A stretch of 64,000 nt of DNA. It comes from Iphione sp. A-MEVVRFRX5 (lineage: Eukaryota). Below, piece after piece: positions 42,417 to 45,400 of the stretch (positions within the stretch are counted from its first letter, which is position 1; each line of letters begins with the position of its first letter). The stretch covers positions 14,756,001-14,820,000 of the forward strand of contig OZ320313.1 of NCBI GenBank assembly GCA_976226885.1, given 5' to 3'. A model generated the notes under the pieces. That model did not search any database, was not told the origin of the DNA, and saw nothing but the letters and a program-made list of their open reading frames with translations. A program made the position numbers and the translations under genes.

Positions 42417-45400
42417 GTCTGGGGAAGCGGATGCCGTTCGTGCTTGGAGCGGAGGAGTCCCAACTGTCGGCGGCGTACCCGGCTACAGCGGAGGCAGCCC
42501 GGGGGACCGTGGGAGATGGTGGCTGTTGATGTGCTGGGCCCTTTCCCCGAGACAGCCCGTGGTGCCAAGTATGTACTAGTAGCCTCAGACCACTTCACTA
42601 AATGGTCCGAGGCTTTCCCTCTGAGTACTTTGACAACGGAGGACACCGCCGACGTTCTGGTGAGGGAGTTGGTGTGTCGGTTTGGGCCCCCCCGGGTGCT
42701 ACATAGTGACCAAGGAAGAAATTTCGAAGCCAGGCTGGTCGCGGAGGTGTTACGCCTATGTGGAGTGGAGAAGACTCGGACCACCCCCTACCATCCTCAA
42801 GCCGACGGCCAGGTAGAGAGGTTTAATCGAACTCTCCAGCATATGCTCGCTACCTCGGCGGAAGATAACCAGTCTGATTGGGATCTACGACTACCTTTCG
42901 TAACGGCAGCCTATCGTGCTACGCCTCATCGAACGACTGGGTACTCGCCAAATTTCCTGATGCTTCACAGGGAAACCACCCTCCCCCTTCAGTTGGCCTA
43001 CGGAGGTCCCCCCGCGGAGGAAAGTGAGGAAGAGGGAGATGTGTACTCCTACGCAGCTGACCTGAGGGAGCGAGTTAGGGCGGCGCACGACCTGACCTAT
43101 CATCGCATGAACGAGGGAATTGCCCGCCAGACAGACTGGTATAACAAAAAAGTCAGGCACACCGACTACCAACCAGGGGACACGGTTTATCTGTTTCACC
43201 CACTAAAGAAGAAAGGACTGTCGCCGAAGCTGCAGAGGTTCTGGCAAGGGCCGTGGGTCGTGAGGGAGGCCCTATCCTCCGCCGTTTATCGAATACAGAA
43301 AGGGCGACACGAGAAGGTGGTCCATGCAGACTTGCTGAAGCCAGGAAAGGTGTCTACGGCCTCCGCGGTGAGGGATCCCCCGGCGACAGTGACCGTTACG
43401 CTGGCGAGTTTGAGGCGGGAACCCTCAGCCAATCAAAGCTCGGCGGAGGGAAGCAACCCACACCTCCGCAGGCAGCGAAGTATAAAGTCGCCCACACCGT
43501 TCGAAGGACTTCATAACTCCTCTCGACCCGCCAAGATGACTAGGAAGAAGGACCAAGTGTATAAATGTGATCAATGCACCTATACATGCGATCGCAAGGA
43601 TAATCTTCGAAGGCATACCCGATTGCACGCCGAGGAAGGTTATGCGTGGCCGTGTCCGTCGACTCGGTGTAAGGAGAAGGTCTTCTCACGCTGGGAGGAT
43701 CTAAAAAGACACCTGGAGACGAGGCAGCACGAGGAAGAGGACGGAGTAAAGGCCCTCCTTAAGAAGTCAAAGGAGGGCTACTACAAGTTCTTCAGAGTGG
43801 GGGGTTCGAGCACCCTCAGAGGACGGCCCAGCGAGCCACCAACGAAGAAAGCGGAGGGCGAGGCGGCGGAGGGGAAGACCGGTCGGGGAAAGAAGAAGAA
43901 GAGCCCAGCCATGGCGGCACAGGAAGCGAGGGTCGAGGCAGTCGAGGAGGAGAGAGAGGACGGAGGCTCGGGGGAGGAGAGCGAGGGGAGTTCCGGGGGT
44001 CGGCCTAAGTCGGTGGCAGTGGCGGCGGCGGCCAAACCTGCTGATAGCGAGACGAGCGAGGAGGGCACCGCGGTAACCGAGGCAAGTGACAGCGAGTGGG
44101 AACCCGAGGCCTCCACCTCGACGGCAGTGTCGCCTCCCCGTAAGAGGAAGGGGGTGCGGACCCGCGGAGGGACCCCTAAAAGAGCGGCGGCGAGGTCTCC
44201 CCCAAGGAAGAAGCAGACGGCGGCGGAGGTAAAGTCCCCAAGATCGCTTTGCAAGGAACTGAGGGGGACTATCTCCGACTTGCAAGTCAGACACCCCGGT
44301 ACCCCGGCCAGCTCCCCCGCCACGGTGGCGAGGGTGGTGGAGGCGGCGGAGGCCCTCGAACGGGCAATGCTGGGGCCGACAGCGACGACAACGGAGGCAG
44401 CAGCGAAGGGCAGCCCGGCAGCGAAGAGGAGACTGGGAGCAACTGAAGGGGGGCTGGCCTCCAAGCGGGGGCGAGGTCGAGGGCGCGCTCTCTCCCCCCT
44501 GGTCGGCAAGAAGGGGGGGCAGTTGCCCTCCGTTCCCTCGCCCCTGTCCATCGAGCAGAGGACACCGCCGGTCCTGCCCGATCGGGCAGCCACCCCGCGG
44601 TTACAAACACCGGAAACGAGGAGCCAGCGGGCCGGGCGCCTATCGAATTTGTCGACACCAAGCTTGCCCCCGACGCCAGCAAGCCTCAGCGATATTATCA
44701 AGTGGCTCGAGGAGGAGGGTCCCCGAGCCTCCCCCCAGGACGTGGCAACCGTGGCCGCTACACTGAGGAACTTGTTTGGAGATACCTTTCAAGTCGTCCC
44801 CACTGAAGCTCCGGTGAGTGCTACCGGGGGGAGGAAAGAGAGCTCCTCCGAGGAAGAGCTAGCTGACCAGTTGCCAGTATCGGGGGAGGAGGAAGAGGAG
44901 GTACCCACGAAGAGGGCCCAGGCGTCGACGGAATTACAGTACGTGGAGGTCGGGGGCGTGGTGGAGGTCCATGAGGCCATCACCCCAGCAGGCGCGGAGG
45001 AAGGCTCCCGGGACTCCCCACCGGTTCAGCAGCCACCGACGAAGCTACCGCAGCGGGACCCGAGAAGCATGGCACGAGAGGTCCTAGCGTGGCAAGGAAG
45101 GAGGGCTGCCGAAGGTGAAACGACCAAGAGCCAGGCGGGGGAGCTCCAGCCTCCTCCGCCGAACCAGGGGGACCAGCCGTCGCCAGCCACTGAGACGGTA
45201 ACGGCTACAAAAGCGTTGATAGCCACGATGAGCGTGTCGCCGCTACCCGAGGACAGCCCCCGCGGCCATGGAGGCCACTCGGCTGGCTCCCCGACTTCCA
45301 CGCTGGGGAGGGTCGAGCCGGTCCCTCCGCCGTCGACGTCGCCTGTGAGGCCCGGGCAGGGGAACCGCGGAGAACCTCCCTCACGACCGGGGGAGGGCGA

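Follow-up and report, generated by a model that had tools for sequence, protein, structure and literature searches.

A Gypsy-type LTR element in the window, the 64,000-nt stretch of Iphione DNA analysed here, very probably contains an internal RNA polymerase II promoter in the coding linker between its integrase and a downstream zinc-finger ORF. This promoter is supported by fixed synonymous sites, by a TATA box that falls in three reading frames, by a fixed spacing between the TATA box and the initiator, and by leaders that do not contain an ATG. A full positive-feedback switch similar to that of foamy viruses is the preferred reading of the element as a whole, with a probability of roughly 0.6.

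The element occupies window positions 38262-47089 and is flanked at both ends by the 4-bp target duplication GTAT. Its LTRs are 278 nt long, and the 3' LTR is 99% identical to the 5' LTR. The TG..CA ends of the LTRs, the primer-binding site, the target duplication and the pol order protease-RT-RNase H-integrase are features of Ty3/Gypsy elements. The tree relating the element to other Gypsy relatives was built from the integrase, and most of these relatives are unnamed. At least 37 genome copies match 43100-43900 at 99-100% (40 of 506 candidates scored). Many insertions, in the flanks of L031-L132, appear to have ATAT-like 4-bp targets, an uncounted impression.

The coding regions and both LTRs are on the plus strand. 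The 5' LTR (38262..38539) contains an array of 10 GCGGAG sites, TATATAAA at 38401, an initiator-like TCAGTT at 38430 and AATAAA at 38472. The gag ORF (start 38524, end 39783) has weak matches to Retrotrans_gag, PNMA and zf-CCHC, all below the Pfam cut-offs. Its ATG is inside the LTR, so that the frame crosses the LTR end and the primer-binding site, and the same ATG position is found in family F2. The pol region (39627..43340) encodes a protease, RT, RNase H and an integrase with its C-terminal domain, and is broken in the window copy at 42414-42416, where there is an in-frame TAA. In many sister copies, pol and the zinc-finger region are spanned by a single open frame of approximately 2,300-2,430 codons. 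The linker (43341..43535) is in-frame coding sequence between the integrase and the zinc fingers and contains the predicted internal promoter. It is followed by the zinc-finger ORF (43536..46775, 1079 aa) and by the 3' LTR (46812..47089), in which AATAAA at 47022 would terminate a subgenomic RNA of about 3.5 kb. The ORF list and the domain scan of the window element do not contain an env ORF.

In the window copy, the plus strand of the linker contains GAGGCGGGA (GC/E2F-like) at 43412, the E2F-like box GGCGGGAA at 43414..43421, the NF-Y-type CCAAT box AGCCAATCA at 43427..43435 and, 9 nt after CCAAT, the predicted zinc-finger site GCGGAGG at 43443..43449. These are followed by the TATA box TATAAAG (43481..43487), an initiator-like TCA (43511..43516) and GCCAAGATG at 43530, the ATG of which is at 43536. 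The predicted transcription start is 43513, an A located 32 nt after the T of the TATA box. Inverted GCGGAG sites on the minus strand (CCTCCGC on the plus strand) are present at 43463..43469 and, further upstream, at 43360..43366. All motifs listed in the initial annotation are found at the positions it assigned, but its list is incomplete, as it overlooked a conserved CCGTTA box (ACCGTTA, Myb-like, 43392..43398, plus strand) that was found post hoc. The names NF-Y, E2F, Myb, Inr, Kozak and GC box are assigned to these motifs on presumed resemblance.

The chance argument from this one copy is modest. AGCCAATCA is one of only two plus-strand CCAAT sequences in the window element. A CCAAT..TATA core arises in 39 of 2000 synonymous-codon shuffles of the 42417-46772 frame, and with 48 plus-strand copies of GCGGAGG in the element, the site at 43443 means little alone. 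It is conservation among relatives that takes the case beyond chance.

Within the lineage of the window element, 112 loci were collected, and the 104 in which the integrase end and the fingers are 100-400 nt apart collapse to 61 distinct sequences. Fifty-four of these were aligned and placed in a tree built without the linker, where 50 form seven groups. Columns common to all seven groups make up 26/38 of those in the initially annotated motifs and 4/98 of those in the rest of 43400-43535. This includes 7/8 columns of the E2F-like box and 6/6 columns of the TATA box. The Myb-like box has column scores of 7, 7, 6, 6, 7, 7 and 7 of 7, and the inverted site at 43463 has scores of 6, 6, 6, 7, 6, 5 and 5 of 7. 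Within 42483-43765, CCAATC and TATAAA are the only two stretches of six bases that all groups share in full. Third-codon positions are common to the seven groups at 9/13 motif positions, compared with 13/202 synonymous sites in conserved integrase and finger codons, which is the reduced synonymous divergence that the initial annotation proposed to look for. Some loci in the seven-group count were picked by motif pattern. A recount limited to matches from the zinc-finger protein search gives five smaller groups, in which 29/38 motif columns and 16/98 other columns are common, as are 10/13 and 27/275 third positions, respectively. Because lineage groups share ancestry, Fisher p-values for these comparisons overstate independence and are optimistic.

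The core motifs of the predicted promoter are also found in more distant families. Four more young families (F5-F8) were found by a search with P0029, a protein with an integrase and two fingers in frame, and a further family (F9) was found by an unrelated Pfam search. The integrases of F5-F8 are 55-58% identical to that of the window element, and their linkers (600-1290 nt) have best blastn matches to the window linker of E 0.025 or worse. F5-F9 keep the arrangement CCAAT-N9/11-GCGGAG, TATA and initiator, in which the CCAAT-to-GCGGAG spacing is 9 nt in the distant families and 11 in F8. One F5 copy has GTGGAG in place of GCGGAG after CCAAT. The CCAAT box is present in all families, and the E2F-like box is absent from the F5-F8 linkers checked. 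Of the promoter elements initially proposed, the CCAAT box, GCGGAG, the TATA box and the initiator are kept in these families, and the E2F-like box and the inverted site at 43463 are limited to the window lineage.

In 7/7 representatives, the core pattern RCCAATS-N22-48-TATAWR has a single match per element, which lies in the linker. The outgroup consisted of metagenome integrase loci, of which the 37 of 80 that extend at least 700 nt downstream were used, and 0/37 contain the pattern. Elsewhere in the window, the 55 kb beyond the element contain it once. F1-F8 served to tune the pattern, which leaves F9 and the outgroups as the only held-out sequences. A pattern search for the core in the genome returned 182 matches, compared with 0 for the reversed control. 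When a Gypsy control without zinc fingers was sought in the same genome, the only results were F9 and what, judged by frame length and shared places, appeared to be the zinc-finger families already identified.

Among 34 copies from six families, the TATA box occurs in all three reading frames, and YCA with its A at +31 to +33 from TATA is present in 33. A TATA box with an initiator approximately 30 nt downstream, both conserved at the DNA level, is a feature of RNA polymerase II promoters. The first ATG after the TATA box is the in-frame zinc-finger ATG in 31/34 copies, with a purine at -3 in 31/31, which agrees with the placement of the promoter directly ahead of this ATG in the initial annotation. 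The exceptions are three F5 copies in which an out-of-frame ATG comes first. The ATG-free leaders are 24-446 nt long, and upstream stretches of equal length contain 0-5 ATGs.

Several of these linkers have additional features. Those of F6-F8 (L114, L118, L115) contain an extra basic, probably helical segment between the integrase and the promoter, which is similar among F6-F8 and absent from the family of the window element. Two CCAAT boxes are present in F6, F7 and F9. The F8 subfamilies L115 and L119 have the same LTR and pol (98% integrase identity) but diverge in leader and zinc-finger ORF, starting at the TATA box, which suggests that the entire 3' gene was exchanged at the promoter.

The zinc-finger ORF begins with two fingers, at 43566-43628 (finger 1, helix RKDNLRR) and 43653-43730 (finger 2, helix RWEDLKR). 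Their C-x-C...H-x-H pattern and their conserved residues at -1/3/6 are those of classical C2H2 fingers; finger 1 is exactly at the Pfam cut-off and finger 2 is atypical in spacing. The linker between the two is one residue longer than canonical. Residues -1/3/6 are R/N/R in finger 1 and R/D/R in finger 2. By convention, finger 2 reads the 5' triplet. Design tables, in the available text of their sources, list RSDNLVR for GAG and RSDDLVR for GCG (PMC5260015, PMC7317221). The predicted site is therefore GCGGAG, and two fingers are predicted to read only these 6 bp. Eight aligned finger proteins are 24-64% identical, and five of the six base-contacting residues (finger-1 N3 and R6; finger-2 R-1, D3 and R6) are invariant in 8/8. 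In F9, position -1 of finger 1 is His, yet GCGGAG is kept. Protein searches did not find a close relative of the finger pair outside the Iphione genome; the nearest is P0029, which has a differing helix, RKGGLTR.

When hexamers are ranked by their lowest count in any of six families, GCGGAG comes first in LTRs (10, 9, 4, 3, 6 and 2 sites) and also in linkers (3, 5, 12, 10, 20 and 8 sites). In F5-F8, its density is 5.6-20 per kb in linkers and 0.3-0.8 per kb in pol, and the linkers exceed synonymous shuffles (p 0.003-0.01) whereas pol does not. In the window family and F2, the enrichment extends over the whole element, with 30-31 sites in pol compared with approximately 8 expected. F8, which has the same key finger residues, also contains many GCGGGG (LTR, 4; linker, 9-14). 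All families predict the same site, such that helix and site are co-conserved with no contrasting family for co-variation. The zinc-finger protein is likely to bind GCGGAG, as judged from the recognition code. The initial annotation held that the promoter carries binding sites for its own product; this agrees with the code and with the co-conservation of helix and cluster, but the site at 43443, which it named, does not establish the point alone.

Over the families, the zinc-finger ORF is roughly 700-1200 aa long. Its middle is long and of low complexity, with tandem 138-nt repeats (45310-46389 in the window copy) that encode a Pro/Gly/Arg-rich repeat, and the length of the open frame differs between copies. 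At the C-terminus there is a conserved domain of approximately 120 residues (~46440-46772) with a confident predicted fold (pLDDT 85) of two helices and four long strands. This domain has no Pfam or Atlas match and no Foldseek match at E<=0.001. A resemblance to phage tail-completion proteins (best Z 7.4, rmsd 3.0, 95 aligned) is within the range of chance arrangements. The analysis of the protein did not identify an activation domain.

The LTR promoter has a different composition. From TATATAAA at 38401 to the A of TCAGTT at 38432 the distance is 31 nt, compared with 32 nt at the internal promoter, which is close to the equal spacing initially reported. The array of seven sites described there is also present, as seven GCGGAGG at 38331-38381, upstream of the LTR TATA box. 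Three further sites are one GCGGAGG downstream of TATA (38418) and two GCGGAGT (38283, 38301). Plus-strand CCAAT is absent from 7/7 LTRs examined. GCGGAG is found 16-21 nt after the LTR TATA box in 5/7 LTRs, and array length varies by tandem gain beside TATA.

In the preferred reading, host factors at CCAAT and TATA, with the E2F- and Myb-like boxes in the window lineage, would drive basal transcription from approximately 43513, as suggested by conservation of these motifs. The first ATG of the resulting RNA, 43536, opens the 1079-aa zinc-finger ORF. Fingers 2 and 1 are predicted to read GCG and GAG. Protein bound beside CCAAT would lead to more of its own synthesis, and protein bound at the LTR array, which has TATA and lacks CCAAT, would turn on genomic RNA. 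The same protein is probably also translated as the C-terminal part of the Pol polyprotein, given that promoter and leader leave the frame open. A broader and more tentative proposal is that an entire clade of animal Gypsy elements independently evolved a circuit of the complex-retrovirus type. In it, a captured two-finger factor, made from a host-sensing internal promoter and also in a Pol-fused, particle-delivered form, would bind one hexamer at both promoters and take the element from latency to replication.

Anti-silencing and repression are the main alternatives because the regulatory sign of the zinc-finger protein is here a prediction. In the first, the promoter and GCGGAG binding are real, but the protein is a chromatin-protecting coat similar to VANC rather than an early-to-late activator. 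In F1 and F2, the sites extend across pol and the zinc-finger ORF (p=0.003 relative to synonymous shuffles), those in F5-F8 are on both strands and on both sides of the predicted start, with many downstream, and GCGGAG contains a CpG; all are compatible with a coat, as are the conserved folded C-terminal domain and the VANC precedent in the available text of PMC5735166. In the internal promoter, however, one site follows CCAAT at a fixed 9-11 nt, the position of GCGGAG past the LTR TATA box is that expected of direct promoter control, and the pol of F5-F8 is not enriched. An anti-silencing coat is thus unlikely, although it accommodates the spread of sites in F1 and F2.

Repression, in which a real promoter expresses a copy-number limiter that acts by negative feedback, is quite unlikely. 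In its favour, many sites occupy the leader or the interval from TATA to the start, positions at which a bound protein can obstruct transcription. Against this, recognisable upstream elements other than these sites are few in the LTRs, the families are numerous and young, as the 99-100% identical copies and the genome-wide core matches indicate, and the arrays change in length by tandem gain beside TATA.

The absence of any internal promoter is very unlikely. In this case the fingers would be a C-terminal extension of integrase that tethers it to LTR ends or targets, or would be reached by splicing, and the motifs would reflect protein constraint. The frame from pol to the zinc fingers is indeed kept, with a linker that is a multiple of three, in 31/32 copies and is open in 28/32; in-frame integrase-zinc finger fusions also occur in other organisms. 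Protein constraint does not, however, account for fixed synonymous positions, a TATA box in three frames or leaders without ATG. The 40.7 kb of flanks from 35 insertions contain 5 GCGGAG, compared with 17 in the 55-kb window background, and target-site tethering by the fingers was rejected as its signal is absent. Splicing to the AAG before the ATG, which the initial annotation named as the outcome that would count against a promoter, is disfavoured, as AG directly precedes the first ATG in just 10/34 copies.

The other two linker frames contain 2-19 stops, and leader lengths of in-frame copies within a family differ by multiples of three, a constraint not needed by a sequence that serves as leader only. 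Together these observations indicate that a Pol-zinc finger fusion is probably also made, or that the open frame serves to avoid a long 3' untranslated region. The promoter had been described as lying inside a coding frame; the linker is in frame after the integrase as stated, but the single conserved frame that unites pol and the zinc fingers was overlooked. A separate Gypsy branch (P0313, P0339, P0380, P0383, L136) has in-frame C2H2 fingers after the integrase with different helices, and these fingers are possibly an independent capture. Two proteins of this branch end in a finger pair that we take to be hunchback/Ikaros-like. In L141, a metagenome Gypsy locus, pol is followed by a separate ORF for zinc fingers, the ATG of which has TATATAG approximately 30 nt ahead of it.

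It is extremely improbable that host Sp/KLF-type factors, rather than the protein of the element, are the main readers of the GCGGAG clusters: several LTRs contain GGGGCGGAG, presumably GC-box-like, but GG precedes only 9/34 LTR sites, the hexamer is fixed within variable flanks, and the helix residues that predict GCGGAG are invariant.

A self-encoded transcriptional switch with an internal promoter is a hallmark of complex retroviruses. To our knowledge, LTR retrotransposons are generally thought to depend on host factors. In foamy virus, according to the available text of PMC8670036, an internal promoter is accompanied by Tas, a DNA-binding regulator with targets at the internal promoter and the LTR. 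The window element is similar in that an internal promoter precedes a DNA-binding regulator with predicted targets at both promoters, and in that host-type basal elements are found only at the internal promoter. Unlike the foamy virus described there, it is a Gypsy-type retrotransposon, and its regulator, for which activation is predicted, is a pair of C2H2 fingers that shares one frame with pol. Spumaretrovirus membership was rejected, as no env ORF was seen and the promoter follows the integrase instead of sitting in env.

Three further systems share parts of this arrangement, as far as the available text of each source describes them. In Oikopleura Tor3b and Tor4b, the promoter Penv, mapped by 5' RACE, drives env (PMC4402516). 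As in the window element, a promoter within or just after pol drives a 3' gene without splicing; unlike in the window element, that gene is env, and the available text does not mention a self-encoded DNA-binding factor ('zinc', 0 matches). In the VANDAL/VANC system of Arabidopsis, an element-encoded sequence-specific protein has short targets in tandem arrays in the element (PMC5735166), as predicted here. VANDAL is, however, a DNA transposon with targets that diverge between families, whereas one site is predicted in all families here. Gypsy elements with chromodomains at the integrase C-terminus (PMC3605345) likewise have an extra in-frame domain after the integrase. Unlike those add-ons, the zinc-finger region is an ORF of ~700-1200 aa that has a start codon and a predicted promoter to itself, and its insertion flanks lack a sign of targeting. 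The available parts of PMC6338049 and bioRxiv 10.64898/2026.08.24.746577 contain nothing on this arrangement. It is likewise not described in the titles and abstract openings of the searched literature, a scope that excludes subscription journals, repeat databases and supplements.

The protein, the six-base site predicted for it and the two promoters can be read in the sequence, and several young families of high copy number conserve them. The circuit is therefore directly testable with short reporters. If correct, the preferred reading would represent convergent evolution of a Tas-like switch, would explain how such elements time their bursts, and would imply that a factor made by a retrotransposon can act on GCGGAG sites of the host.

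The window contains a second young element at 24175-29469, in which identical 300-nt direct repeats surround a 985-codon open frame (26211-29168). By eye, this frame resembles an RT with a GIY-YIG endonuclease, as in Penelope-like elements, and a 486-codon frame is located upstream of it.
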